A stretch of DNA of 64,000 nucleotides, from NCBI GenBank assembly GCA_018238545.1, contig JABCTC010000011.1, positions 5,245-69,244 of the forward strand, written 5' to 3'. Below, piece after piece: positions 74-58,110 of this stretch. Every line of letters starts with the position of its first letter. Position 1 is the first letter of the stretch. The notes under the pieces are model-generated. The model was not told the DNA's origin. It did not search any database and saw only the letters and a program-made list of their open reading frames with translations. The DNA is from Candidatus Heimdallarchaeota archaeon (GTDB lineage: Archaea > Asgardarchaeota > Heimdallarchaeia > Heimdallarchaeales > Heimdallarchaeaceae). The position numbers were made by a program, and so were the translations under genes.

Positions 74-1281
74 ACAATCACATATTGAAATGTATAACTT
101 GTAAGAAAGAATTTGATCCAAAACCCGGTCTCTATTATTGTGAAGATTGTGGTCAGATTATGGGTACCTTAGAAGTAATCTATGATTACGAGACTATCAA
201 AGAGAAATCAAATATCAAAGATATGAAATTCGATAAAAAAGCTTCCATGTATCAATTTAATTTTCTACTACCAACAGAATCAAAATTGAAGTTTGATGAA
301 TATGTAGGAGGCACTCCATTGTATAAATTTGACCTTCTTGGAATCAAGGATGTTCTTCTAAAATACGATGGCTCCAACCCCTCTAGTTCATACAAAGACA
401 GAGCAAGCTCTATAGCTATTAATAGAGCTCTTGAAGAAGGAAATGATACTGTCTTCTGTGCTTCAACTGGCAATGCGGCAGCATCTCTTGCGATGCTAAA
501 TGCTCAAACTAAAATGGAAACATACATCTTTGTTCCATCAACTATCCCTAATGGGAAGCGAGCTCAACTCGAGATATCGGGGGCAGAGGTTATGGCAGTG
601 GAAGGAACCTATGATGAAGTCTATGATTTGTCTCTGGAATTAGGTTTGAAGAAAGGGTGGTACTGCAGAAGTGCTGCAATTAATCCATATTTATTGGAAG
701 GAAAAAAAACTGGAGCATTTGAAATAATAATTCAAAACGATTTCAATGTACCAGATTATGTTCTTATTGGTGTAGGAGATGGAACAGTAATTAGCTCTCT
801 TTACAAAGGATTTTGGGAATTCAAAGAAATAGGTCTGACAGATAAGATTCCCCGTATTATTGGAGTTCAAGCTGAAGGTATACCAGCGATAAAGAAAGTA
901 TTTGATAAAGGTAAACCCTACATACCTCAAACTATCGAGGGTAATACTGTTGCTGATAGTATCTCTGTTGGTAAACCACGTGATGTCATTAAAGCGTGTA
1001 CCTATATTGAAGCATGCAATGGTTATTTCATCACTCTTACAGACGAAGAAATTTTAGATGCCATAATCGAATTAGGAAAAGAGACTGGGTTATTTGCTGA
1101 ACCAGCTGGAGTAGTTCCTTATGGTGGGCTGAAAAAGCTTATTTATGAAGGAAAAATAACCAAATCAGATACTGTTTGCCTTGTCATAACCGGTAATGGT
1201 CTCAAAGATGTTAATGCAGTTGAAGGTTTGATAAACACAGAATCTTTAACAGTTAAAGATTTAGAAAAAAGGTTTGAATGA
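70..1281 (+). CDS. Threonine-synthase-like PLP-dependent (fold type II) enzyme with N-terminal zinc ribbon
   Basis: The ORF track gives 37-1281. The ATG at 70 (MNNHILKCITCKKEF..YYCEDCG) fits the ATGA overlap with the upstream gene. It has a CxxC..CxxC ribbon, GGTPLY, the PLP-lysine motif SSSYKDRAS, and a Gly-rich loop GVGDGT. Confidence 0.7.
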   Translation: MNNHILKCITCKKEFDPKPGLYYCEDCGQIMGTLEVIYDYETIKEKSNIKDMKFDKKASMYQFNFLLPTESKLKFDEYVGGTPLYKFDLLGIKDVLLKYDGSNPSSSYKDRASSIAINRALEEGNDTVFCASTGNAAASLAMLNAQTKMETYIFVPSTIPNGKRAQLEISGAEVMAVEGTYDEVYDLSLELGLKKGWYCRSAAINPYLLEGKKTGAFEIIIQNDFNVPDYVLIGVGDGTVISSLYKGFWEFKEIGLTDKIPRIIGVQAEGIPAIKKVFDKGKPYIPQTIEGNTVADSISVGKPRDVIKACTYIEACNGYFITLTDEEILDAIIELGKETGLFAEPAGVVPYGGLKKLIYEGKITKSDTVCLVITGNGLKDVNAVEGLINTESLTVKDLEKRFE

Positions 1282-2642
1282 TGAAATTTATTCTTAACCA
1301 AGAAATAATAGAAATAGATGAACCATTAGGTAGCTCTACACTTGATTTCCTAAGAAATAAAGGTGTGAAAGGAGTTAAAGAAGCCTGTCATGAAGGAGAT
1401 TGTGGGGCATGTATGATTCTTGTAGGAAAACTAAAAGATGACGAGTTAGTTTATCGCGCAGTCACATCTTGTATACTTCCGCTTGGAGAAGTTGAAGGCA
1501 AACATGTAGTTACAATTGAGGGGTTAAATCAGAAAGAGTTGAACCCTATCCAGCAAGCTCTTGTCGATACAGGAGGGGTGCAATGTGGGTATTGCACACC
1601 AGGATTTGTTATAAGCCTTACTGGTCATTTTATGAATAGTGAGCTTGAAAATGATAATATTCTTACAGCTATTGAAGGTAATGTTTGCAGATGTACAGGA
1701 CATGCTTCAATTATACGTGCTGCAAATCTTCTATCAGACAAGTATTCATCAGTAAAAGAATCTAAACAACAGTGGACAAAAGCTCTTATTGATGTTAGAA
1801 TTCTTCCTTCATACTTCTCAAATATAGCAGATAGATTGAGAGAGTTGAAAAAAACACCTCAACAAACTAAAGGTAGATTTATCGCTGGAGGGACAGATCT
1901 CCTTGTACAGAATGAATCAATTGAAAATCCTGTATTTTTATCAGAGATGAATCTAGCCAATATTTGGTCGGATGCGAATTATATTTATGTTGGAGCAATG
2001 GCAAACACAGAAAAAATACGCTTATCTACAGATTTGAACAAGGTTCTAGACATAAAGAATCATCTTTTTACAGTATCTTCGCTACCCATCAGAAAACAAG
2101 CAACTATTGGTGGGAACATAGTAAATGCTTCACCTATCGGAGATCTAACGATATACTTTCTTGCACTTGATGCAGATATTAGTATCCTAAATGGTGAAAC
2201 AAGTAGAATAATCAAACTCAAAGATTTTTACAAGGGATACAAAATTTTAGACCTTGAAAAAGGAGAAATACTTGAATGGGTTAGAATCAGAAATGAGGAG
2301 AAACTTTTTTCGTTCGAAAAAGTAGCTAAAAGAGAACATCTTGATATTGCAAGTACCAACAGTGCTCTTTCATTAACTTTAGAAGGAAAAATAATCAAAG
2401 ATATTCATTTATCTGCGGGGGGTGTTGGACCAATTCCAATGCATTTAGATAAAGCCTCATCCTTTCTTGAGAATAAAAAAATAGATGCTTCAATAATAAA
2501 GGAAGCTGCACTAATAGCACTGACAGAGATCAGTCCAATTGATGATGTTAGAGGTTCAGCTAAATACAAGAGTTTACTATTACAACAATTAATCTATGCT
2601 CACTTTCTGAAGCTATTTCCTGAAATGGAGGAATTAATATGA
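1278..2642 (+). CDS. xdhA: Xanthine dehydrogenase-family Fe-S plus FAD subunit (two 2Fe-2S motifs fused to an FAD-binding domain)
   Basis: Motifs: CHEGDCGACMILVG, CGYCTPGFV, NVCRCTGH, then FIAGGTDLLV and the C-terminal DDVRGSAKYK. The ATGA start overlaps the upstream stop at 1278-1281. Confidence 0.8.
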   Translation: MMKFILNQEIIEIDEPLGSSTLDFLRNKGVKGVKEACHEGDCGACMILVGKLKDDELVYRAVTSCILPLGEVEGKHVVTIEGLNQKELNPIQQALVDTGGVQCGYCTPGFVISLTGHFMNSELENDNILTAIEGNVCRCTGHASIIRAANLLSDKYSSVKESKQQWTKALIDVRILPSYFSNIADRLRELKKTPQQTKGRFIAGGTDLLVQNESIENPVFLSEMNLANIWSDANYIYVGAMANTEKIRLSTDLNKVLDIKNHLFTVSSLPIRKQATIGGNIVNASPIGDLTIYFLALDADISILNGETSRIIKLKDFYKGYKILDLEKGEILEWVRIRNEEKLFSFEKVAKREHLDIASTNSALSLTLEGKIIKDIHLSAGGVGPIPMHLDKASSFLENKKIDASIIKEAALIALTEISPIDDVRGSAKYKSLLLQQLIYAHFLKLFPEMEELI

Positions 2643-4882
2643 AAAATGATCTTACACCTCCACATACACGAGGAGAATCAATATTCGTTGATGATATCCC
2701 TGAACCCGAGAACTTACTACACGCTGCTGTTTTTGCATCAAATATTGCTCATGGTAAAATAGCTAATTTGGATATATCAGAAGCTGAGAAATCTGAAGGA
2801 GTTTGCAGAATATTAATAGCGAAAGACATTCCCGGAGAAAATCAGATAGGGGGAGTAATACAAGATGAAGAACTCCTTGCTGATGAAGTGGCAGACTTTA
2901 TTGGACAACCTGTTGCAATAATCCTAGCTGAAACAAAAAAACAGGCAAGAGAAGCTCTTACTAAAATAAAGATAACTTATGAAGAATTACCTGCAATCTT
3001 TGATCCTCGAGAAGCGGCCAAGAAAGGCTCGTTAATTGCCCCTTCGCGAACATTTACCCTTGGCGATGTTGATTCTGTATGGGAAAAATGCGCCACAGTA
3101 GTAGAAGGTCGAGCTGATTCTGGAGGACAAGAGCACATATATTTTGAAACACAAAGTGCATTAGCTATCCCAGGTGAAAGTGGAAGAATAACAATTTATT
3201 CAAGCACTCAATCTCCTACACTTGTTCAAAGAATAACAGCACGTATCCTTGGTTATGATATGAACCTAATTGAAGTGGATGTGAAGAGACTAGGAGGAGC
3301 TTTTGGTGGTAAGGAGGATCAAGCTAATCCATGGGCTGCCTTCTGCGCTCTAGGTGCCTATCATACTGGTCGTCCAGTTAAACTAGTTCTAGGTAGAACT
3401 GAAGACATGCAAATGACTGGCAAGCGTCATCCTTACTCAACTGATTACAAAATAGGGCTCAATGAAGAAGGAAAAATTCTTGCATTTGAAGCTGATTATT
3501 ATCAGAATTCAGGCGCAAGTGCTGACCTCTCTACAGCTATTCTTGGACGAACTATGTTCCATGCAACTAATGTTTACTACGTACCTAATGTGCGAATAAC
3601 AGCTTATCCTTGTAAAACTAACCTCGCACCATTTACAGCTTTCAGGGGTTTTGGAGCGCCTCAGGGGATGTTTGTTATGGAATGCGCATTATCTCATGCT
3701 GCAGATATTACAGATATACCTATTTCAGTTTTACAAAAAAAGAATTTACTCGAAGAAGGGGATCAATTTCCTTACGGTATGCGCATTGAAAGGTCTCAGA
3801 TAAAGAGAAGTTTTGATGAAGTTGTTTTAAATTCTAAATATGAAGAACTGAAGAATAAACAGGAAATATTTAACGAGAAACATCGATTTACTAAAAAAGG
3901 AATAGCTATCATGCCCGTTTGCTTTGGAATATCATTCACAACCACAATGTTAAATCAAGCTGGGGCACTTGTTCACATCTATACTGATGGTAGCGTCAGC
4001 ATAAGCACAGGAGCAATTGAAATGGGACAAGGCGTGAATATGAAAATCAGGACAATTGCTGCTCATGCTTTATCGATCAATATTAATCGAATTCGTATTG
4101 AAAGCACAAATACAACTCGTGTTGCTAATACATCACCAACAGCTGCTAGTAGTGGTTCTGACCTTAATGGTAAAGCAGCAGAAATAGCTTGCACCAAAAT
4201 AATAGAGAGATTAAGAAATTTGGTTTCTGAAAAATTGGGTAGTGGATTGATAACCATTAAAGATGAGATTATCTACTCTGAAGGAAAGAAAGTAGATATT
4301 ACTTGGGAAGAACTCATATGGTTAGCTTATACGAAAAGAATAAATCTCTCTGCTCAAGCACTTTATGCTACACCAAGAATCTATTTCGATAAAAAGAAGG
4401 AGAAGGGAAGACCATTTGGTTACCATGTTTACGGAACAGCTGTTACAGAGGTAACAGTCGATTGTCTTAGAGGAACATATGTTGTAGATAAGGTGCATAT
4501 TGTTCATGATGCTGGCAGAAGTTTAAACTATCTAATTGATATTGGTCAAACAGAGGGAGGATTATTGCAAGGAATCGGTTGGATGACAATTGAAGAGTTA
4601 GTTTATGATAATGGAAAACTTCTTTCTAGTGCTCTTGCAACTTACAAGTTTCCAGACCTTCACTTTACACCAGAAATTGATGTGACTTTTCTTGAAGATG
4701 CTGATAATCCTGAAGCTGTGATGAAATCAAAGGCTATTGGAGAACCACCGTTTATGTATGGAATCGGGACTTACTTTGCACTAAAGAATGCTGCTAGGTC
4801 ATTTCGCAAAGATAAGGAGTGGGAATATTCTTCTCCTCTTACACCAGAAAAACTCTTACTCTATCTTCATGAATTGGAGTAA
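2639..4882 (+). CDS. xdhB: Xanthine dehydrogenase-family molybdopterin-binding large subunit
   Basis: Motifs: GGAFGGKED, TAFRGFGAPQGMF, and KAIGEPPF (catalytic Glu region). Length is 747 aa. ATGA overlap at 2639-2642. Confidence 0.85.
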   Translation: MKNDLTPPHTRGESIFVDDIPEPENLLHAAVFASNIAHGKIANLDISEAEKSEGVCRILIAKDIPGENQIGGVIQDEELLADEVADFIGQPVAIILAETKKQAREALTKIKITYEELPAIFDPREAAKKGSLIAPSRTFTLGDVDSVWEKCATVVEGRADSGGQEHIYFETQSALAIPGESGRITIYSSTQSPTLVQRITARILGYDMNLIEVDVKRLGGAFGGKEDQANPWAAFCALGAYHTGRPVKLVLGRTEDMQMTGKRHPYSTDYKIGLNEEGKILAFEADYYQNSGASADLSTAILGRTMFHATNVYYVPNVRITAYPCKTNLAPFTAFRGFGAPQGMFVMECALSHAADITDIPISVLQKKNLLEEGDQFPYGMRIERSQIKRSFDEVVLNSKYEELKNKQEIFNEKHRFTKKGIAIMPVCFGISFTTTMLNQAGALVHIYTDGSVSISTGAIEMGQGVNMKIRTIAAHALSININRIRIESTNTTRVANTSPTAASSGSDLNGKAAEIACTKIIERLRNLVSEKLGSGLITIKDEIIYSEGKKVDITWEELIWLAYTKRINLSAQALYATPRIYFDKKKEKGRPFGYHVYGTAVTEVTVDCLRGTYVVDKVHIVHDAGRSLNYLIDIGQTEGGLLQGIGWMTIEELVYDNGKLLSSALATYKFPDLHFTPEIDVTFLEDADNPEAVMKSKAIGEPPFMYGIGTYFALKNAARSFRKDKEWEYSSPLTPEKLLLYLHELE

Positions 4883-4903
4883 TAAATCAAAACTAAAGTA
4901 AAG

Positions 4904-5875
4904 ATGTTTGTTATGAATGAAAAACAATTTTGGGAAATGGTTCTAGATACTCTGGAAGAAGGAAATAGTGCAGTACTTGTTGTTATAATCGATAAGAAAG
5001 GATCTGGACCAAACTTACCAGGAGCAAAGATGTTTGCAACATCAAATGAAGTGAGTGGAACTGTAGGAGGAGGAATCTCTGAACTTAATTTACTAAATCA
5101 TGCTAGGAGATTATTGAAAGAAGGAAAGATTGCCACTGAAACTATCCTCCTAGAACACAGTGAAACTGCAGAAGAAAATCGTTCAGGTATGATCTGTTCT
5201 GGTTCGCAGACTTTCGCATTAGTTCCTCTATCAACTTTGGATAAGAGCACTATCAAAGCAATAATAGAAGCTTATGATGAAGTAAAAACAGGCATAATTG
5301 CCTTAAGCGAAAAAGGAATCAGTTTTGATAGAAACAAATCTTTAACGGAAGATAGAGTTTTTTCCACAGAAAACGAAATATGGCTGTATCAAGAAAATAT
5401 TGCACAGCAAGATAAACTCTTTATTATAGGAGGAGGGCACGTATCACTTGCTTTATCTCGGGTCATGAAAACACTGGATTTTCATATTACAGTTTATGAT
5501 GATAGAGAGAATCTACCAACCATGAACAACAACACATTTACTCACAAAAAGCAAATTCTAAGTTATGACGATATTGCTGGAAATATCCCAGAAGGAGATA
5601 ATATCTATGTTATTGTTATGACTTTTAGACATTTTTCAGATGAAAACGTACTTGAAAGGATTATTTCTAAGAAGTGCAGGTATATTGGAATGTTAGCAAG
5701 TATAAAAAAAGCAGAAACAATTTTCTCTAATCTTGATAAAAAGGGTGTTTCAAAAGATCTTCTTGATATAGTTCACTCTCCCATCGGTATAAAAATCCAA
5801 AGCAATACTCCTGAAGAAATTGCCATAAGCATAGCTGCAGAAATTATCCTCACCAAAAATTCTAAGTCCAAATAA
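4904..5875 (+). CDS. xdhC: XdhC/CoxI-family molybdenum cofactor insertion chaperone
   Basis: N-terminal XdhC-like region followed by a Rossmann-like segment LFIIGGGHVSLAL. It lies directly downstream of the xdhAB-like genes. Confidence 0.65.
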   Translation: MFVMNEKQFWEMVLDTLEEGNSAVLVVIIDKKGSGPNLPGAKMFATSNEVSGTVGGGISELNLLNHARRLLKEGKIATETILLEHSETAEENRSGMICSGSQTFALVPLSTLDKSTIKAIIEAYDEVKTGIIALSEKGISFDRNKSLTEDRVFSTENEIWLYQENIAQQDKLFIIGGGHVSLALSRVMKTLDFHITVYDDRENLPTMNNNTFTHKKQILSYDDIAGNIPEGDNIYVIVMTFRHFSDENVLERIISKKCRYIGMLASIKKAETIFSNLDKKGVSKDLLDIVHSPIGIKIQSNTPEEIAISIAAEIILTKNSKSK

Positions 5876-6293: not shown

Positions 6294-9200
6294 TTATATG
6301 AATCGTTTTCTAAGAAGATATTTTTTGTTAACAAGAGTGAAAACTGTATTCAAAATATCATCTAATTCTACATTTTGGAATTCAGTTATTATTGAACTAA
6401 CAGATACTGATTCAGATTTTACTATATAGTTAGTAATTTTCACATTAATATCTTTTAGTTTCTTAATATCCTTCTTCTTTTTATCATTCAATTGCAGTGG
6501 GAAGAATAACCAAATATACAAAGTTTCAGCAATTTTGTCTTGAATTAGATTCTTCTTTTCAACATAAGGATCCATTTTGCCATCCCATACACCCTCTATT
6601 GAGAAGGAATATTCAAACCACATTATTAAATCAAACAATCTAGATGTAAGTTCACTGCTTATCTCCTCAGATGAAAACATGAAAACTGAATACTGTTCAG
6701 CACTAGCAGTATTAACTACAAAATTTCTGTATTCTAGTTTCTTAATCCCACCGGTACCCATTCCTCCAATTTGTTTACCCATTGAAGCTACTACTGAGAG
6801 AAAACCTGTAATCAGCGAAGTATCTACAGTCTTCTTGTACTCAATATCATATTCAAACACTGGAAGGCTTGTCTCATTGTGAATGAATAGAAGTTTCCTA
6901 AGAGACAAGATATTTTCAAACAATGCTACAAGATTCGATCCTTCAGAAACGTCAACTATATCCCCTTTACCTTTCCCTCTTTTATTTCCAACAACAGCAA
7001 CAATTGATATTATCGCGATCAGAACGATTGAAACACCTATGATTACACCTATCAAATAAGGAGGAAATTCAGAAGGAGGAGTAGTAGGGGGGGGAGTAGT
7101 AGGGGGGGGAGTAGTAGGGGGGGCAGTTACTTGATTAATCACAACATCAAATGTTGTTTCAAGTTTCTCGTTGCTATAACTAGATTTGAAATGTGATTTT
7201 GATATATCCAATACTAAATCAAATTCATTGAATCGAATTGCTTGAGAGGAGATAGTAACATAGTTAATCTCATCTTCATAATTAACATAATAATCTTCTT
7301 GAGCCACTATTGCTCCTTGGATTACTATTGACAATTCGCTTTCCGATACCTCCATTGGGTTTCGGTCAGCATCAGTTTCATTGATCAATCTGAAAGATAT
7401 GATCAAATCTTCAGTAGAGTTGCTTTCTATAGAAGTTTCTATAGGTTCTACAGAGAATATATTGAATATTTCAAGATTAAGAATCACATGATGATTTTCT
7501 AATAGGATGCTCGTTGTAGTAAGCTCAATTGTATAAGAACGAGCTGTAATATTATCATCAAAGGTAATACTGTGAAAATCATTATTGGAGGTTAAATTCC
7601 CATTATCTCCCCAACTTGTTTGATATTCGATTGTGGTGTTTTCTATTATTTCTCCATAACTAGTAAAGAAAGGTTCACTTAACTTGTAATAGCTACTATT
7701 AATAAAAAGTTCATCCCCATTCTGTCGAACTATGGTTTGGGTAACGTTACTTACCCAATTACTGTTATCAGGAATTTCCTCCCATTCAACATTGAAGTAA
7801 GTAGAAGCTTGGACATAAATTGGTTGAGAGTAGATACCTATTTCTGTACCGTTGTTCCAATAAACAAATGCTGTCCAGATTCCTTCAGGGTCGCTTCCAT
7901 AAACGGAAGGATCAAGGGTTATCTCAGATGAGTATAACCCTGGACCATCTGGTGTGAAATCTAGAAGAGTATATGGGGACAAATCAGTATAAGTCAAATT
8001 GATTGGAAGACTTGTTTTTAGAGCAATTATCTCTCCATCAGGGTTGAATAAAGTAAAGTTTAGTGTCCCTGAAATGGTATTTTCTATAAGTGTTATTGTT
8101 GAGTAAATGGTAGAACCCTCATAACCTGTAGCATTTATTCCATCTGTAGTCCAATGACCTAAGGAAAACAGATTTGTTGGTTCCTCTTCATTTGATAATT
8201 CCAGTGATTGAATGAAATTAGGACTAGAAGTTTCTAACCTAAAATACCCAGCTGACACATTAGAGTCTAAATAACATAGATAAGTATCACTGGAAAGTAT
8301 AGTTGGAAAGGTATCAGTATCATTATAATAACAAATTGGACTATCGTTCCAATCACTTATTGTTGCTACATGTATCATTCTCTCATAAATTGAGAATGTG
8401 GAAGGATCTACAGATGAAACATCCCAAGTTAAGTTCCAATATATTGAGTAATCTCCAGCTGTTGAGTTAAATGCCGCAAAGTAAGAATCAGCAGTTATTG
8501 AGTTTATGAAACTGTAAGAGTTGTTGAAGGTTATTTCTAAAGAAGTGTCACTTGTTAGATTATGTAGACCTATTGAAGTAATTTGAGAATCTATGTCTAG
8601 GACATCAATGTCATTATCCTTCAATGTAATTCTATTTAAGTCTTTGAATTCCATTGCTGAACCAGTTTGATTTGAAGGTAGTAATTCAACATTTAAAGTA
8701 AAATCAACAGATGGAAGATAATTCCAAGTTAATAGATTGTCCATGTAGTATGAATCACCGAGATATGGGGGCACTGAATTACTATGCCAAAAATAGAATT
8801 TAGGACCTATTGAAGTGATATCTGTAAAAGTTGCAATAACATAATATTTCCCTTGATCTAGAATTATATCTGTAAAATCATAATACAAGAATCCCGAGAT
8901 AATTTGATTAGTAGTATTATAGGGTCCATCAACACTTGATGAGTAAATTTGACTCATATTAGGCTGACCAGAAATTTCATCTGCTTTGACAATAATTAAG
9001 TCAAAATCGTTTATTCCTGTCTGGCTTCCATCTGTACTCAGATGAAGTTCTGCACCATAAAACATAGCATATTCCCAAGGAACATTGAAACTTTGTGCTA
9101 TAGCATGTTTAGTATCGTCTAGATGATCGTCACCATCTTCTTCGAGTTCAATCGGATAAAAATCTTGTTTAGCAAGAACTTGTGTCATATTGTAGTTTAA

Positions 9201-9756: not shown

Positions 9757-12700
9757 TCAATCAGCATTGTTTGTTATCAGTTTTTCTTCTTTCACCAAAA
9801 TCATTATCCTTTCAAGAATCGCTTCATTAGAGTATTCATCAAGTTGATCCATAATAAGAGCAGTAGTAGCTTTGCCTTTACCATTGATAAAGGAGACAAT
9901 CTCTTGGTCTATGGTTTTTAGTTTACTAAGATCTTCAAGTGTCTTTGATGGTGCTTGTAGTGGAAACATGAACCAAAGGAATAGTTCTTCTACCACTTTT
10001 TCGTTGATACTTGTCTTATATTCGTTGAATATATCCATCGAGCCTTCCCATTTTGCCCCCTCGTACCCGAAAATCACATCAAACCATTTAACAAGATTAT
10101 CTAACCCTTGTTCAAATTCTACTTCTAATTCTGTATCAGAGAAAGAATATATAGTATACGCTCCACTTGAAGCACTTGTTACAACAAAATTATAATATTC
10201 TATTTTCTTAATACCTGTTCTTGCACCACTCATTTCTGCCCCTATTGATGATATTGCTTGAAGTACTCCACTGATTATTGACGGATCTAACTCTGCTCTC
10301 TCATCCAAACTGTATTCATAAATTGGAGAACTAGTTTCATGATGAACTACAAGTATACGTTTTATCATAAATGCAGATTGAAAGATAGCTCGAGCCTTTG
10401 ATTTGTCCGCTTCATGTTCTTCTTTTCTCTTGCTCATTTGTGTTCTAGTAACAAAGAATGCTCCTACACCTAGTCCTGCAACTACAACTAGTGACAGTGC
10501 AATTATCAAACCTATTGGTAGTCCTCCAGTTGGTGTTTTAATACTAATTGTTGCAAGAATAAAACTCAGCACTGTGTCATATCCTTCTTTGGACGCTGTT
10601 ACTCTAACGTTCAGTGTTTTGGTTTCAGGTTCGTTAATTCGAATTATGAGTGTATATATACCATCATTCTCTGAGTTTTCAATTATTTCCACACCAGGTT
10701 TTGCTATATCTAAAGATACTTCTATTGTTGCACCTTTAATTTGTTCAGAATGTGTTTCATCTATCCATTCAAAAGTCAAAGTTATCTGACTGCTAGTATT
10801 TGTCTCTGAAACTGTAATGATTGGTTCGACAGAGGTATCTGCAACAGCTAATATGTCGTAATTGATTGTATTTGATGCTATCGGATCACCTAGCGATTCA
10901 ACAAAATAGATTTTCTGAACAGAGATTTCTACTTCATAATTTGCAGGTAAGTTATCTAATACATCATTATAGATAGTTAACAAGAAGTGATCATCGACCC
11001 CAACACTCATGTATTCAACCATTGGTGTTAATGAAGTTCCATTTATTGCTACATGTATGGAAAGGTTGTTAGTAATTGGAGCACTTCCATTTGTTACATC
11101 TACAACAGAAAATGTAAATTCTGCGTTATCAATGTAATAGTACACCGGATTTACAGATTGAGGTTCAAGGACACGGAACTCATGTAGTAGAATCAAAGAA
11201 AATTGATCTGAATGAGATTGTAAGAATGGTCCTTTTGCATATATATCTATGAGATAGGACCCTTCTGTTATATTTGGTGCTAGACTATAACTATAATTTC
11301 CTGAATCAAATGCAAGATTATCTGTATCTAACCAACTTGTTGTATAGTAAACATCTCCGTTAGGAATGTATGTTCCTAAACCTGTAAAGAATGGATCGCT
11401 GATATTGTAGTAACTAACTTTAATGTTAATCGCTTCACCATTTATTCTAGTAATCTCAGTAGAGGATAATTCTAACCAGTCTCCTCCTACTTCTTCTTCT
11501 ACGAAGAATGAAGCCAATGTTGGTTTGAAAACAGTAATTGTTTGAGTGAAAAGTCCTGCTTCCGTACCGTTTGTCCAATAATAAACCACTGTCCAATATC
11601 CTTCAGCATCTGATGCAGATATAGACGGATCAAATGTAACATTGGCTTTGAAAAGTGAACCTTCTGTATAAGCATCATTAGTATAGGAAGAATTGTCTAG
11701 ATAGATAAGATTAACCGGCAATGAGCTCTTCAGTGGAAGTATATTACCATTACTATCCAATACGGAATAATTTAGTGCCCCCCCGCTCGTTATGAAATTC
11801 TCTATGCTTGCAGTCGACAGTATTGTCGTTCCTTCAAAACCAAATGCGTGTGTCTCATTATTTGTCCAGTATCCTAACTCTTGAAGTGTATCACTTATGG
11901 ACGTCGTTGTGATGTAATTTGGACTTGTAATCGTGAACTCAAAGTTTCCGCTATCATATTGGTTTATGTTAAATAAGATGGATAAATTATACTCAAAAAC
12001 ATTTCCAACCCAACTTCCAGTTATTGGAATCCCCCCATTCAATAAAAATGAGAAAGCTGTTTTATTCCAATCATTTGGAACAGAAAATGCTTGAAATCTA
12101 GTGGTGTTTGTATATGTTCCCAAACTCACAACATCTGTAGTCCAAGAATGAGTCCATGTGTTACTATACTCATTATATGTAGAATTAAGAAGATCAATTA
12201 CCGAAGTAGAAGCGTAAGTTCTACTAAATTGATAACTACTGTTCGATTGAAGAATAACGGCCCTATTTGATGTTAATATATGAAGCCCAGTTCCACTAAT
12301 AATTTGATCGAGTGTTGTAACATTAGCTCCATTATCAGTTAGATCCACTGTTGTTGGATCTGTATATGTCAGGGGATTTCCACCACTATCTGATTCTTGT
12401 ATATGAGAGGCAAATGCAACAGTTCTCCCATTTGGATCAGGACCGACCCAGCTTGTCCCATCATGATAATACGTTATTCCTTGAGAAATTTGTTGGCTTC
12501 TCCAGAATAATCCTGAATCATCATCAACATCAATAGTTGAAAGGTTTGCAACAACGAAATAGGATCCAATACTTAATGTATAGTCTACAAAATCGATGTA
12601 CGCCATGATGTCTATACTACTCACGGGAAGAGGATTAGCTAGACTAAATGTGTTATCAATGGCAGTACTTAGAATTGCACTCATATTGGGTGTTCCGGAC

Positions 12701-13269
12701 ACACTTTTTTCTACAAGAAATATATCTATTTCATCTCCAACATAACCTAATCCGAAAATTTCTAATCCCAATTGGGCTCCATGGAATATAGCATAAGGAG
12801 TAAGTACATCAAACCCAATAGCATAACTTATTCTTGAAGATGTTAATTCATCAACAATTCTATTTCCTCCATCTTGAATGAAATCTACATCAATAGCACT
12901 TTCAAGTGTCAGATTATATTGTAATATGTCATCTGAATAACTTGTGGGAGAGGTAATAGTGTAAGAATTATTATAACCATTAGTTGAATTCAAATCAATG
13001 TTAAGAGAATCGTATACAGCTAAAGTGTCATCAATGACAAGAGAATCTCCTGAATCCGATAAACTATCAATGGGTGTATAATCATATTTAATTCGGTTGG
13101 TCAAATCCGAAGTATTTGGTGAGATGTTATCATCATCGATAATATTTGAAAAAGAATCTATGGAGAAATTGTTGAGATTGTTTTCTATTAGAATTGATGA
13201 CACAAGTGAAAATGTGAAAAGCGCAATAATTGTACATGATAAAATTTTTTTGTTGATATTATGACCCAT
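9757..13269 (-). CDS. Large single-pass membrane protein, paralog of 6294-9569: sequon-rich ectodomain, TM helix, 230-aa cytosolic module (family member 2)
   Basis: N-terminal anchor ILSCTIIALFTFSLVSSIL and TM LPIGLIIALSLVVVAGLGVGAFFV. Several ectodomain blocks are shared with 6294-9569, for example EGYWTVVYYWTNGTEAG versus EGIWTAFVYWNNGTEIG. It has the conserved cytosolic module. Confidence 0.85.
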   Translation of the reverse strand: MGHNINKKILSCTIIALFTFSLVSSILIENNLNNFSIDSFSNIIDDDNISPNTSDLTNRIKYDYTPIDSLSDSGDSLVIDDTLAVYDSLNIDLNSTNGYNNSYTITSPTSYSDDILQYNLTLESAIDVDFIQDGGNRIVDELTSSRISYAIGFDVLTPYAIFHGAQLGLEIFGLGYVGDEIDIFLVEKSVSGTPNMSAILSTAIDNTFSLANPLPVSSIDIMAYIDFVDYTLSIGSYFVVANLSTIDVDDDSGLFWRSQQISQGITYYHDGTSWVGPDPNGRTVAFASHIQESDSGGNPLTYTDPTTVDLTDNGANVTTLDQIISGTGLHILTSNRAVILQSNSSYQFSRTYASTSVIDLLNSTYNEYSNTWTHSWTTDVVSLGTYTNTTRFQAFSVPNDWNKTAFSFLLNGGIPITGSWVGNVFEYNLSILFNINQYDSGNFEFTITSPNYITTTSISDTLQELGYWTNNETHAFGFEGTTILSTASIENFITSGGALNYSVLDSNGNILPLKSSLPVNLIYLDNSSYTNDAYTEGSLFKANVTFDPSISASDAEGYWTVVYYWTNGTEAGLFTQTITVFKPTLASFFVEEEVGGDWLELSSTEITRINGEAINIKVSYYNISDPFFTGLGTYIPNGDVYYTTSWLDTDNLAFDSGNYSYSLAPNITEGSYLIDIYAKGPFLQSHSDQFSLILLHEFRVLEPQSVNPVYYYIDNAEFTFSVVDVTNGSAPITNNLSIHVAINGTSLTPMVEYMSVGVDDHFLLTIYNDVLDNLPANYEVEISVQKIYFVESLGDPIASNTINYDILAVADTSVEPIITVSETNTSSQITLTFEWIDETHSEQIKGATIEVSLDIAKPGVEIIENSENDGIYTLIIRINEPETKTLNVRVTASKEGYDTVLSFILATISIKTPTGGLPIGLIIALSLVVVAGLGVGAFFVTRTQMSKRKEEHEADKSKARAIFQSAFMIKRILVVHHETSSPIYEYSLDERAELDPSIISGVLQAISSIGAEMSGARTGIKKIEYYNFVVTSASSGAYTIYSFSDTELEVEFEQGLDNLVKWFDVIFGYEGAKWEGSMDIFNEYKTSINEKVVEELFLWFMFPLQAPSKTLEDLSKLKTIDQEIVSFINGKGKATTALIMDQLDEYSNEAILERIMILVKEEKLITNNAD

Positions 13270-13363
13270 TATAATCCCAGAAGATTTGTTTTTAGTTTAT
13301 ATGTTAATTTTACTTTAAATCTTTATTGTTTATATTTATTACGTAGGTGTAGATAGTTGATAC

Positions 13364-14047
13364 TTAATCATGAGAGGAAGTAACCAAATAACCTTTATCC
13401 ACTAAACCAAATATCTCATTTAGAATTTCTTCTTCATCAAATTGCTTGAAATAATCTAACAGACGTGCTGATGTACAACTCTTGTTTTTATCTACACACT
13501 CAAAGATAGTCCTGCCAAACACTGACAACTGTTTTGTATCTAATTGTTTGTTCTTGGATGTTTGAAGGGGATAAAGCAACCAGAGATACAGATTCTGTGA
13601 AATTTTGTTTTCGATTATAGCTTTGTTAATTTTAAAAATGTCTAGTGAACCATCCCAATTATCCTTTATTGATCGAAAGGCTGTGCTAAACCATGAAATT
13701 AACTTCTGCATTCCTTTTTCAATCTCTTTTTCTAAATCGGTTTCAGAAAATATATAAATTGTAAAACCATTGAAGTGAGACCCTGATACAACAAAGCCAT
13801 GAAATTCAAGTTTCTTAAAGCCCGTTGGTCTTCCTATCATCTCTTGACCTATAACTGATATAGCTTCAAGAATCCCAGTAATCATAGAAGAATCAAAAGG
13901 AATCGTGTTTTCAACATCTTTTTCGAATACTGGAAGACTTGTTTCATGGTGAACTATCAGAATTTTTTGAATCATGAAGACAGTTTGATAAATGTCTCGT
14001 AGTCTATTATAAGGTAAATTATCCGTACTAACCATTGTTTCGCTCAA
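13364..14047 (-). CDS. Stand-alone copy of the cytosolic module (predicted Roadblock/longin-like alpha/beta domain plus winged-helix-like C-terminus), family member 3
   Basis: 227 aa. Aligns block by block with the C-termini of the two upstream giants: ILIVHHETSLPVFEK, DSSMITGILEAISVIGQEM, GFKKLEFHGFVV, NWDGSLD, LYLWLLYPLQ, ILNEIFGLVDKGYLV. Confidence 0.8.
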   Translation of the reverse strand: MSETMVSTDNLPYNRLRDIYQTVFMIQKILIVHHETSLPVFEKDVENTIPFDSSMITGILEAISVIGQEMIGRPTGFKKLEFHGFVVSGSHFNGFTIYIFSETDLEKEIEKGMQKLISWFSTAFRSIKDNWDGSLDIFKINKAIIENKISQNLYLWLLYPLQTSKNKQLDTKQLSVFGRTIFECVDKNKSCTSARLLDYFKQFDEEEILNEIFGLVDKGYLVTSSHD

Positions 14048-14269: not shown

Positions 14270-14824
14270 ATGGTAAAACCATATCATCAATATGATTATA
14301 GAAGCTTTTCAATGTATTATGATGGTGACGCATTAAGAATAAGCAAAAAAGGATCATCTCCTATTGATAGAGAAGAATTCATCAGAGAAACAGATAATGA
14401 ATTGCTAATCTATTATGAAGAGGAATATGATGGTATACATAATGCGTTTCTATTCGATTTCCATTCTGGAGATTGTGTATTTTACAAAACAGAACAAAGT
14501 TTCTTAGATTACTTAGATGACGATAACAACTTTATTGGTTGGGGAAACTCAGTTACATTAAAACGAACAGAAAATGACGATAGATTCGAATCGATGCCAT
14601 GGAATACAACGAGTGTATGGACAGGATATATGTACTGGAAGATTGGGAAAGCTCTAGATGATGAGGAAACTAGACAATACATCGCTGAAAAAAAGAGTCG
14701 CAACCCATCACTGATACCTTTACCGGTAGAAAATCTTCTTGAGAAAGCAATTCGAGCATATCAAACGTATATGAATGAGGCGAAAGAGAAGAGGGAACAA
14801 AGCAAAAATAATAAAGACGTATAA
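14270..14824 (+). CDS. Hypothetical protein (acidic, no recognised motifs)
   Basis: 184-aa ORF in its own intergenic context, divergent from 13364-14047. Confidence 0.5.
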   Translation: MVKPYHQYDYRSFSMYYDGDALRISKKGSSPIDREEFIRETDNELLIYYEEEYDGIHNAFLFDFHSGDCVFYKTEQSFLDYLDDDNNFIGWGNSVTLKRTENDDRFESMPWNTTSVWTGYMYWKIGKALDDEETRQYIAEKKSRNPSLIPLPVENLLEKAIRAYQTYMNEAKEKREQSKNNKDV

Positions 14825-14840: not shown

Positions 14841-15083
14841 ATGGTATTTGTTTACCTAGCATTGAAAACACCAACCATTTCATGGTTAGATTCACTGTTT
14901 TACTGGTCTTGGTCTATGTATATAGGTATAGCTACAAGTATGCTTTGTGTGTTTTTCATATTATTAGATAATAGAGAGTTGTGGCCCCTTTATCCATCAA
15001 TTGGAACATTCGTATTTGCTGTTCTAATTACTATTCAAAAATTTACTTTAAAGAACTTAAATAAGAAAATAGTGGAGGACTAA
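14841..15083 (+). CDS. Small membrane protein (2-3 predicted TM helices)
   Basis: 80-aa hydrophobic ORF starting 17 nt after the preceding gene. Confidence 0.4.
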   Translation: MVFVYLALKTPTISWLDSLFYWSWSMYIGIATSMLCVFFILLDNRELWPLYPSIGTFVFAVLITIQKFTLKNLNKKIVED

Positions 15084-16799: not shown

Positions 16800-16997
16800 T
16801 TGAAAGGAAATATCAAAAGAATGATTTCTGATAAAGGTTATGGATTCATCACTGTAGAAGGAGAAGAAAAAGATCTCTTTTTCCACCGTACTGGTACTAC
16901 AGGTGAATTTGATGATCTCAATGAAGGAGACGAAGTCGAATTCGATCTAGAAGAAACCGATAGAGGAACTCAAGCAAATAACGTAAACAAAGTCTAA
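16800..16997 (+). CDS. csp: Cold-shock domain protein (CspA family)
   Basis: KGYGFI (RNP1-like) and LFFHR (RNP2-like) motifs in a 65-aa OB-fold-sized protein. It uses a TTG start preceded by GGAGG. Confidence 0.8.
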   Translation: MKGNIKRMISDKGYGFITVEGEEKDLFFHRTGTTGEFDDLNEGDEVEFDLEETDRGTQANNVNKV

Positions 16998-17138: not shown

Positions 17139-18395
17139 TTAGCTTTGATTCAAGATTAACCTAACATTAAGATCAAGTTCTTCACCTTTCTTTGTTAGAC
17201 CTGTAATATATAATGTTTCATGGTTTCGTATTCCTTGTTCTTTCAATGTTGAATCCATTTCTACATCTACTGGGTCTTTTTTATCAATTATCCAAAATGA
17301 AGGTAAAAATTCAGGATCATAACTATATCCTCTGTTTTTTATGATAGTTAGTAAAACATCAACAGTTGCAGTTGCAGGTATTTTTACTTCTTCAATTATT
17401 GTAGCATTCCTACCACAGAGCATGCATTTCTTATTTGGTGGTTTTTCTATATAGAAGAATTTCCCTACTAATCCATTGTAAATAACATATTCAGGATTTA
17501 CAGTACCAAGTTCAATTCCTTTGAGATGGTGCATAAGTTTCAATGCTTCTTGTGATTGTAAAGAGGCTATTACAGCATTAATACTAATTATTGTTGGGTC
17601 GTGTTGGTCAACCATTTTCACAGCTTCATCCAAAGAAAATACCTTTTCAGAGGGGAAATGCTCTTTCACTAAGTTATTTGCATAGTTTATTACAAGATTC
17701 ATTTCTTCCAAAATGGTCGTATCAGGGGGTCTATTGTTCTTTGACTCAAAATATAGTTGTCCTTTCAACAAACAGTGAGATTTTTTTCTTGGTATTCCCA
17801 CTAGTGTACAAGCTGCTAAAGTTTCTCTTTCTCGTTCTTGCTGTGGATCACATTGAAGGCATGCATTTTCATCTGGCAAATAGGTGTAAACATGACCATA
17901 ATATGTTGCAGTTCCTCCATCAATCATTGGTTTCTTAAACTGAACCGCTCTTCGTATTAGCTCGTTTCTTGCTGTAACAGAATCTAAACCAGAAACATAC
18001 ATATCAGCTGTAGCATATACCTCTGGGTCAACATCTTCTAGATTGGAATGGTGCCAAATATATTTACTGTAAGGATTTATTTTCATTAGAGCTCTTGCTG
18101 CAACTTTAGCTTTAGGTTCTCCTTCATCTGCATCTGAGAAAAGTATTTGTCTATTAAGATTGGAATATTCAATAATATCTAAATCGATAAGGTGAATAGT
18201 TCCTACACCGGCCATAGCTAAGTTCTTTGCTATTTCTGTTCCCAATCCCCCAACTCCAACAATTAAAACCGTTGAATCTTTCAAAGCTTTCTGATTCCAT
18301 CCAGGTAATCTAAGTTGTCTATCAAAACGTATTCTCTCATCTTTTGAAAGGGTTTCATCGAAGAAATTAGATTTTTTTATGTTTTTTGCATTCAT
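17139..18395 (-). CDS. E1-like ubiquitin-activating enzyme (ThiF/MoeB/UBA adenylation domain with catalytic-Cys region and C-terminal Ub-fold-like domain)
   Basis: Motifs: GVGGLGTEIAKNLAMAGVG..IDLDIIEYSNLNRQILF, paired CxxC (CLQC, CMLCG), and the Cys segment LAACTLVGIP, which resembles the P-x-C-T motif of UBA enzymes. Confidence 0.85.
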   Translation of the reverse strand: MNAKNIKKSNFFDETLSKDERIRFDRQLRLPGWNQKALKDSTVLIVGVGGLGTEIAKNLAMAGVGTIHLIDLDIIEYSNLNRQILFSDADEGEPKAKVAARALMKINPYSKYIWHHSNLEDVDPEVYATADMYVSGLDSVTARNELIRRAVQFKKPMIDGGTATYYGHVYTYLPDENACLQCDPQQERERETLAACTLVGIPRKKSHCLLKGQLYFESKNNRPPDTTILEEMNLVINYANNLVKEHFPSEKVFSLDEAVKMVDQHDPTIISINAVIASLQSQEALKLMHHLKGIELGTVNPEYVIYNGLVGKFFYIEKPPNKKCMLCGRNATIIEEVKIPATATVDVLLTIIKNRGYSYDPEFLPSFWIIDKKDPVDVEMDSTLKEQGIRNHETLYITGLTKKGEELDLNVRLILNQS

Positions 18396-43769: not shown

Positions 43770-44324
43770 TTAGGATAATTCAGCTTTAATAGATTTTTCA
43801 ATCATCATTCTTGTAATTTCGTAATAGATATCATTGATATTCTGACCATTTTTTGCAGAAACTTCATAATAAGGGAGAGTCTTCAACTTAAATTCTTTCC
43901 TTTTCTTCTCTGCATATTCTAAGATATCTTTCTTTTCGACTTCTCTTTGTTCTTGAACATCAGTTTTATTTCCTATCAAGATAGCTGGTAAAATATCTTC
44001 ACACACATCATATACTTCTTTGAACCACTTATCCAGTTGCTCAAAGGATGTTCTATCTGTTATGTCACAAACAACAAGCACACCATAGGACCCCTTGTAA
44101 TATAAAGGTCGTACATACGAAAAACGGTCATGTGATCCTGTATCCCAAGTTTGTAGCTTCACTTTGTTTCCATCAACTTCTATGTCCTTAACAGAAAATT
44201 CTACTCCAATTGTTGGTAGATATCTTTCCCTAAACATACCTGTAGCGAATCTCAAAGTGATAGATGTTTTTCCCACTCCGGGATTTCCAACTATAATCGT
44301 TTTGAACAGGTAGTCAAAAAGCAC
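43770..44324 (-). CDS. Rab-like small GTPase with atypical switch II
   Basis: FDYLFKTIIVGNPGVGKT (G1), YLPTIGVEF (G2), WDTGSHDRF (G3 variant), GNKTD (G4), VSAKNG (G5). No C-terminal Cys. Confidence 0.85.
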   Translation of the reverse strand: MLFDYLFKTIIVGNPGVGKTSITLRFATGMFRERYLPTIGVEFSVKDIEVDGNKVKLQTWDTGSHDRFSYVRPLYYKGSYGVLVVCDITDRTSFEQLDKWFKEVYDVCEDILPAILIGNKTDVQEQREVEKKDILEYAEKKRKEFKLKTLPYYEVSAKNGQNINDIYYEITRMMIEKSIKAELS

Positions 44325-57600: not shown

Positions 57601-58110
57601 AGTTATGCAAAACAACAAGTTGAGCCAGCTTTAACTGATGAAGCTATGGAAAGAATTGAAGCCTATTATTTAGATTTAAGGAAAACTTCAGATGAGAATA
57701 CAGCTATAGCTATTACACCCAGATATCTTGAAGCAATTATTCGTTTATCTGAATCTCAAGCAAGAATGGCTTTGAAAGATGAAGTTACAATTGATCATGT
57801 TGAAGCTGCTATAAATCTTCTAAGATCTTCTCTAGAACAGGTAGGAAAAGATCCAGTTACAGGTAAAGTTGATATTGACTTCTTACTTTCAGGAACAACT
57901 AAGGCTACTAGATCAAAAATGCAAACTGTTATTGATTTAATTAAAGAGGAATCTCGAAAAGGAACCGTTGACATAGTGCCAGTTAGGAAAATCAAAGAGC
58001 TTGCCAAAGAGAATAATATCGAAGAAGATTTTGTAGATAAAGTTATAGAACAACTTCGAAGTAATGGTGAGATATATTCACCAAGAGATGGTTACGTTAA
58101 GTTAGCATAA
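54658..58110 (+). CDS. mcm: MCM replicative helicase, interrupted by an intein in the Walker A loop
   Basis: Zn motif CAICG..CVNPNCG. Walker A GDPGVAK | intein | SQMLQY. Walker B CLIDEFDKM. Arginine-finger region SRFDLIF. Confidence 0.9.
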   Translation: MHVDMTSTPVERFREFYQGYQDENGKHIYIEQVQKMSLEGLSSVILNYDDLLRYDPELARLLRENPEETIKAADDALVEVLRVEDPIYASSGEVFHARFISIPDIVDLRRLRSVHLGQFISVEGIIIRQSVVKPLLVQGVFQCAICGEVHYINQEDGMYAEPSRCVNPNCGKKGPFKLLTEESTYTDLQTVTVQEKPEELPPGQIPRSLPSRLVGDLVDSVRAGDRAIASGILKMRPSRTAQGKSKTATFDPWLDVNFISSKDKEYEDIEIDPETEEEIIKLSKDLNIHRRIVRSIAPSIYGMETIKEALASVLFGGVSRVAPDGMKQRGDSNVLLVGDPGVAKCCHGETEILEVNGVTTTIEKIVNKQLAINSTKIDDGYYAEGTLPIFTLNMNGKLEKSVANIFWKREAPKIMFKIKTNLGNEITVTPTHPFFVTENCEIESKKAKLLKVGDFIASPLGVQNESESSIDIDIKKGLTTAQKVNIPKKITPELARLLGYLCGDGCVYEANTSYVTSFTNADKKLIDDYIYCFEQSFKNINFYQENKINSPQTREIRAYSIELGRFFQKLAPSLLEGSDNKRVPNAIMKAPNELSKEFLKGYFDADGTVNKKRATISATSSSGKLLSDIQLLLRRHNIVSQIGYTHSKSQTSKKKKYHRLKITSIVNFKNFKHEIGFSSIKNERLDKNFYSNTNINVVPGLSQFLLELREEYGLSQYEMGITRSTYQHYEKGDRNPSRGKLREIILEISRIKQSIKIEQLQKLIDADIFWTRIVSIKEIIPDFEWVYDLQVPETHNFVANGIFVHNSQMLQYIARLAPRGLLTSGKASSAAGLTAAVVRDPDSGEFTLEAGALVLADRGVCLIDEFDKMNPVDRSAIHEAMEQHTISIAKAGIVATLNARTSIIAAANPRFGRYEDSRPPNENINLPPTILSRFDLIFVIKDIPDEDKDKKMARHILELRRGHITEAVEPVIPMELLRKYISYAKQQVEPALTDEAMERIEAYYLDLRKTSDENTAIAITPRYLEAIIRLSESQARMALKDEVTIDHVEAAINLLRSSLEQVGKDPVTGKVDIDFLLSGTTKATRSKMQTVIDLIKEESRKGTVDIVPVRKIKELAKENNIEEDFVDKVIEQLRSNGEIYSPRDGYVKLA
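55690..57075 (+). mobile_element. 462-aa intein with LAGLIDADG endonuclease and an embedded HTH-like segment, in the MCM P-loop
   Basis: It starts at Cys345 (CCHGETEIL) and ends ..GIFVHN, followed by +1 Ser. LAGLIDADG blocks are LGYLCGDGCV and YFDADGTV. The HTH-like segment is LSQYEMGITRSTYQHYEKGDRNPS. Confidence 0.85.

Follow-up and report, generated by a model that had tools for sequence, protein, structure and literature searches.

A longin-type module with a winged-helix-like end, shared by a soluble protein and the tails of two giant membrane proteins in a Heimdallarchaeota locus

Three adjacent genes on a 64-kb stretch of Candidatus Heimdallarchaeota DNA (hereafter the window, i.e., the whole stretch analyzed) encode one common module, which our models describe as a longin-type alpha-beta domain followed by a winged-helix-like end, and which occurs once as a soluble stand-alone ("solo") protein and twice as the C-terminal tail of a giant predicted surface glycoprotein (giants A and B). 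We propose, with a probability that we put at about 0.55, that this module is a divergent, Asgard-specific cytoplasmic platform for dimerization and recruitment beneath surface glycoproteins; both the pairing of modules and the recruitment of a client are what we infer by analogy with related domains. The window has a GC content of ~33%, and the closest relatives of its proteins come from Candidatus Heimdallarchaeota metagenome-assembled genomes (MAGs).

The original prediction, made from the letters of the window alone, had claimed that the solo protein and the giants share a module, and this is real: a six-frame tblastn search of the window with the solo protein returned exactly three significant matches, namely the gene itself, the C-terminal ~214 amino acids (aa) of a 1170-aa open reading frame (ORF; 38% identity, E = 2e-51) and the C-terminal ~210 aa of a 1091-aa ORF (35% identity, E = 7e-35). 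Both giant ORFs lie directly downstream of the solo gene in the same orientation. The solo gene was listed as a minus-strand ORF at 13364..14047, or 227 aa counted from a TTG at 14047, and has 33 Heimdallarchaeal homologs that are mostly 223-230 aa long. Because homologs of 223 aa share the N-terminus MVSTDN..., with which the closest ones begin, the true start is likely the ATG at 14035 (223 aa). The solo protein contains no hydrophobic or transmembrane segment and is soluble.

An AlphaFold2 model of the solo module, run on a 30-sequence alignment, is usable, not excellent (mean predicted local distance difference test score, pLDDT, of 77.4; predicted template-modeling score, pTM, of 0.74; five models spread from 77 to 53), its sheet and its alpha2 and alpha3 helices reaching pLDDT values of 83-92. 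Its first eight elements (H, helix; E, strand) are H8-21, E22-29, E34-40, H49-65, E75-78, E81-88, E91-97 and H103-119, i.e., the alpha-beta-beta-alpha-beta-beta-beta-alpha order that had been predicted, almost residue for residue, and after residue 119 the model continues with H133-148, H151-154, E157-159, H172-183, H189-195 and H201-213. A Foldseek search of the Protein Data Bank (PDB) gave 30 matches at E ≤ 1e-3, and all 30 are longin or Roadblock domains. The top match is zeta-COP (3tjz_C, E = 4.4e-5), and the others include AP-1/2/3/4 sigma subunits (6owo_S being among the adaptor and coat matches), mu N-terminal domains (9c58_M, of this class, with a template-modeling score, hereafter TM-score, of 0.67 normalized to the target and a root-mean-square deviation, rmsd, of 3.7 Å), Mon1-Ccz1, Fuzzy-Inturned/CPLANE, TRAPP Trs23/Bet5 (3cue) and, among Roadblock proteins, MglB (1j3w, E = 3.7e-4). 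LAMTOR subunits and Rag C-terminal domains fall just above the threshold, at E = 1.1e-3 to 2.2e-3. Further matches to structures of the MglB, LAMTOR or DYNLRB kind are 3t12 (E = 1e-3), 7t3a_O (E = 1.1e-3, TM-score 0.54) and 5yk3_C. A PAS/GAF or purely helical fold, which had been named as the outcome that would speak against a Roadblock/longin-type domain, did not emerge: the model is alpha-beta, and the top 50 PDB matches contain no PAS, GAF or profilin domain. On this modeling evidence, the N-terminal ~120-150 aa of the module are a Roadblock/longin-type alpha-beta domain, as had been proposed.

Between the two subclasses, the window proteins themselves are mixed, since they combine an N-terminal helix (as in Roadblock) with two helices after beta5 (as in longins). 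Longins superpose better, with an rmsd of 3.7-5.6 Å for sigma, zeta and mu-N adaptins, Fuzzy and Mon1-Ccz1 vs. ~10 Å for MglB (TM-scores of 0.43-0.45). What speaks for longin, on the aligned sequences, is the wider family: a beta-beta-alpha-beta-beta-beta-alpha-alpha core is present and the same span is conserved family-wide, many family matches cover just profile positions ~23-145 (beta1 through alpha3), and relatives P0193 and P0178 start at beta1 without the N-terminal helix. Because some distant relatives keep beta1 through alpha3 and lack this helix (alpha0), the conserved core order reads as the longin order, and longin is favored over Roadblock. In the transmembrane-fused forms alpha0 serves as the juxtamembrane connector, and the solo paralog has kept it.

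The fold ranking also bears on one alternative, in which the module would act as the sigma or mu-N longins of AP/COPI complexes do and mark the giants as cargo for membrane remodeling. Zeta-COP and AP sigma/mu-N domains do rank top (E = 4e-5 to 5e-4, TM-score up to 0.67, target-normalized), and some members carry a weak adaptin-appendage-like domain (in P0129 a beta-sandwich, with Alpha_adaptinC2 at E = 0.024 and GAE_BBS1 at E = 0.022). However, the ranking among longin subclasses is narrow and the extra C-terminal helices alone may explain it, the module has no Clat_adaptor_s sequence match, and no large-adaptin or coat genes lie nearby, so that we consider such a sorting signal very unlikely.

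Both giants have the same layout, with an N-terminal hydrophobic signal/anchor, a long ectodomain, one strong transmembrane helix, a basic stretch and then the module. Because the basic stretch follows the single transmembrane helix (positive-inside rule), the module is predicted to lie in the cytoplasm in both. Each giant contains 26 N-X-S/T sequons (whole proteins), and the two ectodomains are paralogous (~29% identical to each other), with no known domain and no match in Pfam, NCBIfam or PDB sequence searches. Giants A and B each have their own series of orthologs in other Heimdall MAGs; among close orthologs of giant A the tail is 83-89% identical vs. 47-56% for the ectodomain, a pattern which is expected if a variable outside is joined to a constrained inside. 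Giant B further contains, at residues ~815-840 immediately outside its transmembrane helix (6990-7130, minus strand), a proline-threonine repeat, APPTTPPPTTPPPTTPPSEFPP, which looks like an extended, possibly O-glycosylated stalk.

The attachment of such a domain to giant ectodomains had been thought unusual, whereas it turns out to be the common state of the family. Among 182 domain matches (top representatives of the homolog and profile searches), 111 comprise the full longin plus winged-helix module and 59 the longin core alone, and a transmembrane helix lies within 60 residues upstream in 68 of the 72 full modules that have more than 40 residues upstream. The dominant architecture, as predicted from these sequences, is thus a transmembrane-anchored cytoplasmic tail, in proteins of up to 2900 aa. 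An exhaustive profile search collected 371 sequence-cluster representatives (E ≤ 1e-3). Named database entries are all "hypothetical protein" bar one, named after its leucine-rich repeat (LRR) region, and come from Heimdall-, Hod-, Loki-, Hel- and Jordarchaeal MAGs or unclassified Promethearchaeota; as far as named members show, the family is restricted to Asgard archaea. A search with PADLOC returned nothing, and a defense system was rejected.

Soluble members join the core to LRRs (P0085), to immunoglobulin-like domains (P0104) or to winged helix-turn-helix (wHTH) or PCI/DDRGK/E3-UFM1-ligase-like winged-helix arrays (P0090, P0093 and P0129, the PCI/DDRGK/E3-UFM1-ligase-like helices being those of P0093). 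In five Loki or Hel proteins, soluble or transmembrane (P0090, P0101, P0104, P0129 and P0142), the longin core lies C-terminal to a conserved region, YDYVGG.IRFKV..N..., which is often preceded by wHTH arrays and in P0129 is the source of the weak adaptin-appendage matches. Proteins of these types, including P0093, may overlap the "unique architecture" eukaryotic signature proteins of Liu et al. A metagenomic relative of 254 aa, P0193, has this family's domain at residues 1-125 and a separate Robl_LC7 domain at residues 147-243 (E = 1.4e-5; match at residues 155-221, with weak Fuz_longin_3 and Intu_longin_3 similarity), an arrangement reminiscent of the multi-longin Mon1/Fuzzy-type Rab guanine nucleotide exchange factors (RabGEFs). 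P0193 was rejected as a sequence bridge from the module to Roadblock, as its Robl_LC7 match sits in that second domain.

Conservation across the family peaks at helix alpha1, with the motif D-P-x-L-I-S-G-F-L-x-A-I-S-S-F-G-x-E (G54 in 44 of 45 sequences, A58 in 42 of 45), and a W-x-G motif after alpha2 is also strongly conserved (G129, 42/45). Across the broad family, the beta1-beta2 loop reads [TS]-G-L-P-[VI]-Y, with the G present in 31/45 sequences and the P in 22/45, whereas the window copies have T-S-L-P or T-S-S-P. Catalytic longins of GTPase-activating proteins (GAPs; FLCN, NPRL2, SMCR8), together with linked Asgard longins, carry a GP motif in this loop and an arginine finger (PMC12290439). 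The module has no GP motif, the G and P being one residue apart in the broad family and the G missing in the window copies, and no column of the broad alignment reaches 40% arginine except a buried beta5 position, nor does any reach 70% lysine plus arginine. An FLCN/NPRL2/SMCR8-type GAP longin was rejected on these motifs, which make a catalytic GAP of the FLCN/NPRL2 type unlikely.

For the C-terminal end, the original prediction of a small winged-helix unit fared well as to fold class and less so as to statistical proof. The last 78 residues, modeled separately on 22 sequences, gave a pLDDT of 87.2 with H2-9, E11-14, H27-38, H44-50, H56-68 and E72-74, i.e., a three-helix bundle (H27-38, H44-50, H56-68) and a strand wing (E72-74, with E11-14 as partner strand). 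Foldseek neighbors of this unit are almost all winged helices (TM-scores of 0.5-0.64, query-normalized); the best E-value is 0.41, and no PDB match reaches E < 1e-3. Small queries often give no fold match at that threshold. The neighbors include the winged helix of RPC39 (2yu3), recognition elements for ribosomally synthesized and post-translationally modified peptides (RiPPs; 8vpo, 5v1v), Lrp/AsnC, MarR, RPA32C and ST1889, plus a non-significant match (E = 0.6, TM-score 0.58, query-normalized, rmsd 3.3 Å) to a KICSTOR-GATOR1 chain whose identity is read solely from its length of 368-370 residues. Below threshold (E = 0.3-1), the broad profile picked from the PDB the Lrp wHTH 2ia0, Sul7s and the C-terminal region of MCM4. 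We thus assign the unit to a winged-helix-like fold class with moderate confidence, on the strength of the model.

The presence of Lrp/AsnC and MarR regulators among these neighbors could suggest a membrane-tethered transcription factor whose winged helix binds DNA, the solo protein being a soluble regulator. Against this, winged helices of the close family are acidic, with a median net charge of -5 for the whole unit and -3 for the third helix, and two of the three copies in the window have a pI of 4.6-4.8; the neighbors of the unit also include the protein-binding winged helices of RPC39, RPA32C, the RiPP recognition elements and the non-significant KICSTOR-GATOR1 chain. Because of this acidic charge, including that of the third helix, DNA binding is unlikely and the unit looks like a protein-binding one; we give the transcription factor almost no credence.

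How such modules might work is suggested by other longin/Roadblock domains, which form homo- or heterodimers that serve as platforms (Levine et al., 2013, PMC3747258; Tran et al., 2024, PMC10933270). We propose that modules pair in the same manner, tail with tail and/or tail with soluble paralog, via the conserved alpha1 face; that the solo paralog would be a dedicated partner subunit; that paired modules may form a hetero-oligomeric, membrane-proximal platform beneath the surface proteins; and that this platform, with its winged-helix units, would bring in a client from the cytosol, so that fast-evolving ectodomains would be linked to a conserved partner inside the cell. Indirect hints of pairing come from the conserved alpha1, the low pLDDT of alpha1 in the monomer model and the clustering of paralogs. 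Module genes always stand in co-directional clusters of 2-5, typically with one or two solo genes and two or three giants, in a neighborhood sample of 27 loci (the window and 26 related loci; 352 kb, ~60 module genes), which were retrieved with the close alignment, are Heimdall loci and mainly describe the Heimdall subfamily. The combination of solo gene and giants is conserved, in one common orientation, in 20+ of the Heimdall loci.

Several results weigh against this proposal. Homology to longins is argued from the fold, whose similarity is moderate (best E = 4e-5, TM-scores of 0.5-0.67, target-normalized), since sequence connects the module to no known longin or Roadblock family: Pfam yields nothing on the three window copies (E ≤ 1) or on 16 diverse relatives (E ≤ 0.5 or E ≤ 1), NCBIfam nothing on the module, and phmmer and hmmsearch against the PDB (close and broad profiles) no significant match. 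Robl_LC7 (PF03259) in particular is found neither on the three window modules at E ≤ 1 nor on 10 diverse relatives at E ≤ 0.5, and the curated longin families (Longin, Clat_adaptor_s, Sybindin, Sedlin_N, Fuz_longin_1, NPR2, Folliculin and others) give no sequence match on the module. The weakest part of the AlphaFold2 model is residues 41-80 (pLDDT 49-64), that is, helix alpha1 and the next loop; a weak alpha1 in a monomer model is expected for an interface helix, and alpha1 is also the most conserved. Each gene has an AT-rich region of its own upstream (94 and 187 bp), so that the cluster need not be co-transcribed. Finally, an iterated search seeded with the window Ras-family protein found six small-GTPase genes in the 352 kb, none of which adjoins a module gene (the nearest is ~3 kb away) and which are not enriched beside module genes, nor is any GTPase, Roadblock or cytoskeletal gene consistently adjacent to module genes in the loci examined.

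This last result bears most directly on a dedicated small-GTPase regulator (GEF, GAP or docking platform like MglB, Ragulator, TRAPP or Mon1-Ccz1), which would relay ectodomain events to a Ras-superfamily switch. The Rab-like GTPase that had been noted at 43770-44324 is a genuine Ras-family gene (Pfam Ras, E = 2.5e-48), which shows that the genome encodes such GTPases. It lies 30 kb from the cluster, and with none of the six small GTPases adjacent across the 27 loci, the suggested route from the cell surface to GTPase signaling is left unsupported. The lack of the GP dipeptide and of a conserved arginine finger also counts against a regulator. On the other side, the close structural neighbors of the module are all subunits of GTPase-linked platforms or Arf-dependent coats, and in P0193 the module is joined to a genuine Robl_LC7 domain, an arrangement like that of tri-longin GEFs. 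Moreover, Tran et al. (2024, PMC10933270) note that the GTPase genes of Asgard archaea as a rule share no operon with longin/Roadblock genes, such missing linkage being reported as typical of GTPase regulators in this group, and because of this the negative neighborhood is weak evidence against a GTPase client.

Three more distant loci do have a gene for a 188-aa Rab-like GTPase 5.4-7.5 kb downstream of the last module gene (L019, 19069-19635; L022, 7024-7590; L025, 11989-12555), which could be inherited synteny or loose linkage, and a Gtr1/RagA gene in L005 is 4.7 kb away, on the opposite strand and in a different gene group. We regard a dedicated regulator as possible, if doubtful. Within the platform that we propose, analogy alone makes a small GTPase the leading candidate for the client. 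A full receptor-like system, in which the longin-winged-helix tail of a large, fast-evolving glycoprotein would heterodimerize with the soluble paralog into a membrane-bound platform and dock or switch a Ras-superfamily GTPase, is in our view rather unlikely; if true, it would be undescribed in any domain of life and a prokaryotic forerunner of the membrane-anchored longin/Roadblock platforms of eukaryotes (Ragulator, SNARE longins and cargo-adaptor coupling).

Tails and solo protein might instead oligomerize to cluster or anchor the giants in an envelope that lacks a surface layer (S-layer), or tie them to the cytoskeleton, with no switch signaling. Giants A and B form a conserved pair with sequon-rich ectodomains, the acidic winged helix would be a protein binder, and cultured Lokiarchaea lack an ordered S-layer and bear numerous complex surface proteins (PMC9834061). 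In locus L004, a gelsolin-domain gene (13051-13896, minus strand; weak Pfam match) has a tandem pair of family members (767 and 753 aa) at a distance of ~0.8 kb; it agrees with a cytoskeletal tie but is a single case. The module is also found in soluble LRR, wHTH-array and adaptin-appendage-like proteins, which argues for a general interaction or regulatory domain, and a pure envelope scaffold seems improbable to us.

Positions of the three module genes and of their parts are collected in Table 1.

Table 1. Module-encoding genes of the window and their predicted parts (window positions; residues numbered within each protein).
Feature	Position	Strand	Remarks
Stand-alone (solo) module gene	13364..14035	-	223 aa when started at ATG 14035 (coordinates cover the stop codon); 4 aa longer from TTG 14047
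Helix alpha0, residues 8-21, PYNRLRDIYQTVFM	13973..14014	-	AlphaFold2; corresponds to the juxtamembrane helix of the fused copies; not conserved in the most distant relatives
Longin-type core beta1-beta2-alpha1-beta3-beta4-beta5-alpha2, residues 22-119	13679..13972	-	AlphaFold2, Foldseek, conservation; includes conserved beta1-beta2 loop HETSLPVF and family-defining alpha1 motif SSMITGILEAISVIGQE
W-D-G motif, helix alpha3 (133-148), short helix 151-154, strand 157-159 in LWLLYPLQ and linker to winged helix, residues 120-165	13541..13678	-	
Acidic winged-helix-like end, residues 166-223	13367..13540	-	Three helices plus C-terminal strand pairing with the LWLLYP strand
Giant A, predicted type-I membrane protein, 1170 aa	9757..13269	-	N-terminal signal/anchor at residues 9-27; ~890-aa ectodomain
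Transmembrane helix of giant A, residues 922-940	10450..10506	-	Followed by basic TRTQMSKRK
Longin-winged-helix module of giant A, residues ~949-1170	9760..10425	-	Predicted cytoplasmic; 37-38% identity to solo protein
Giant B, predicted type-I membrane protein, 1091 aa	6294..9569	-	Paralog of giant A over its full length; TPPP-repeat stalk before the transmembrane helix
Transmembrane helix of giant B, residues 842-860	6990..7046	-	Followed by GNKRGKGKG
Longin-winged-helix module of giant B, residues ~874-1091	6297..6950	-	Predicted cytoplasmic; 34-35% identity to solo protein

Around the cluster, genes for a xanthine-dehydrogenase-type molybdoenzyme (2Fe-2S/FAD subunit, molybdenum cofactor (MoCo) subunit and XdhC; 1278-5875, plus strand) directly flank giant B, as they do in L001 and L016. 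A few kb separate the cluster from a ThiF/E1-like gene (17139-18395, minus strand) and a cold-shock-domain gene (16800-16997, plus strand). Loci L010, L012 and L014 also contain the ThiF gene (77-81% identity), and L003 has a ThiS-like gene (1132-1359) near its cluster, a proximity that probably reflects shared regional ancestry rather than function. Divergent from the solo gene is an 80-aa ORF with one transmembrane segment (14841-15083, plus strand), with counterparts 51-62% identical beside the cluster in L001, L002, L009 and L003, embedded there in ORFs of ~100-275 codons; a 184-aa ORF just before it (14270-14824, plus strand) has no counterpart in these four loci. Farther away, a large intein splits the MCM helicase gene (54658-58110, plus strand); this intein includes a LAGLIDADG homing endonuclease and a helix-turn-helix (Pfam MCM, Intein_splicing, LAGLIDADG_3 and HTH_3).

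A longin/Roadblock fold is in itself expected in an Asgard lineage; the fold assignment is solid, the architecture is what is interesting, and the GTPase story is unproven. Longin and Roadblock platforms are central to the regulation of eukaryotic membrane traffic (TRAPP, Mon1-Ccz1, Ragulator, AP/COPI, GATOR1, FLCN), and to our knowledge almost none of their Asgard paralogs has an assigned partner or cellular context. The present family supplies such a context, namely the inner face of the membrane under large surface glycoproteins, with a dedicated soluble paralog alongside, and it is abundant (371 representatives) yet invisible to Pfam and NCBIfam. The literature that we searched, to which the tables of Asgard clusters of orthologous genes (asCOGs) did not belong, holds no description of the family, of longin plus winged-helix tails on type-I surface glycoproteins or of the conserved cluster of solo genes plus giants; the family may already be numbered as an asCOG. 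Should tails and solo protein pair and enlist a GTPase or a coat-like partner, they would make a direct outside-to-inside link from "eukaryotic" trafficking parts in a prokaryote, and if the module merely clusters envelope proteins, it would still be a useful domain definition for annotating Asgard surface proteomes.

Among known systems, Roadblock/LC7 proteins (MglB, LAMTOR2-5, DYNLRB and Rag C-terminal domains; PF03259) share the alpha-beta-beta-alpha-beta-beta-beta-alpha order of the window proteins and match in fold (E = 4e-4 to 2e-3), whereas the module lacks a PF03259 match, superposes more poorly on them, has its N-terminal helix outside the conserved core and has no MglA-like GTPase as neighbor. 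The AP sigma, AP mu N-terminal and zeta-COP longins (Clat_adaptor_s) are the best fold matches, with the beta-beta-alpha-beta-beta-beta-alpha-alpha core and extra C-terminal helices. The longin domain of the module differs from the adaptor and coat longins in that it shares no detectable sequence similarity with them, comes either in a membrane-anchored tail or in a free protein, precedes a winged helix and has no large adaptin subunits alongside.

The first longins of Mon1-Ccz1 and Fuzzy-Inturned/CPLANE are fold matches as well (9lol_B; 9rs8_A, rmsd 4.0 Å; 7q3d_C; 9rs9_A, 220 aligned columns). In these tri-longin RabGEFs, the first longin probably resembles the module in its beta1-beta2 loop ("small-G-x-P-hydrophobic-aromatic") and in having a G/S-rich alpha1, and relative P0193 resembles them in pairing the module with a Robl_LC7/Fuz_longin_3-like domain. 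They differ in that each window protein contains a single longin domain instead of three, with no Fuz_longin_1 or Mon1 Pfam match on the module, and in that the RabGEFs themselves lack the winged-helix end and the transmembrane anchoring that mark the module proteins. The GAP longins, i.e., NPRL2/NPRL3 (GATOR1), FLCN and SMCR8, with the Asgard "NPRL2-like longin" asCOGs, are set apart from the module by its T-S-L-P (window) or G-L-P (wider family) loop in place of GP, by its lack of an arginine finger and by the lack of a Pfam NPR2 or Folliculin match, but they do share its succession of a longin and a small helical or winged-helix unit, and Asgard genomes are reported to hold ~130 asCOGs of the Roadblock/longin superfamily, including "NPRL2-like longin" domains fused to signaling domains (bioRxiv 10.1101/2020.10.19.343400).

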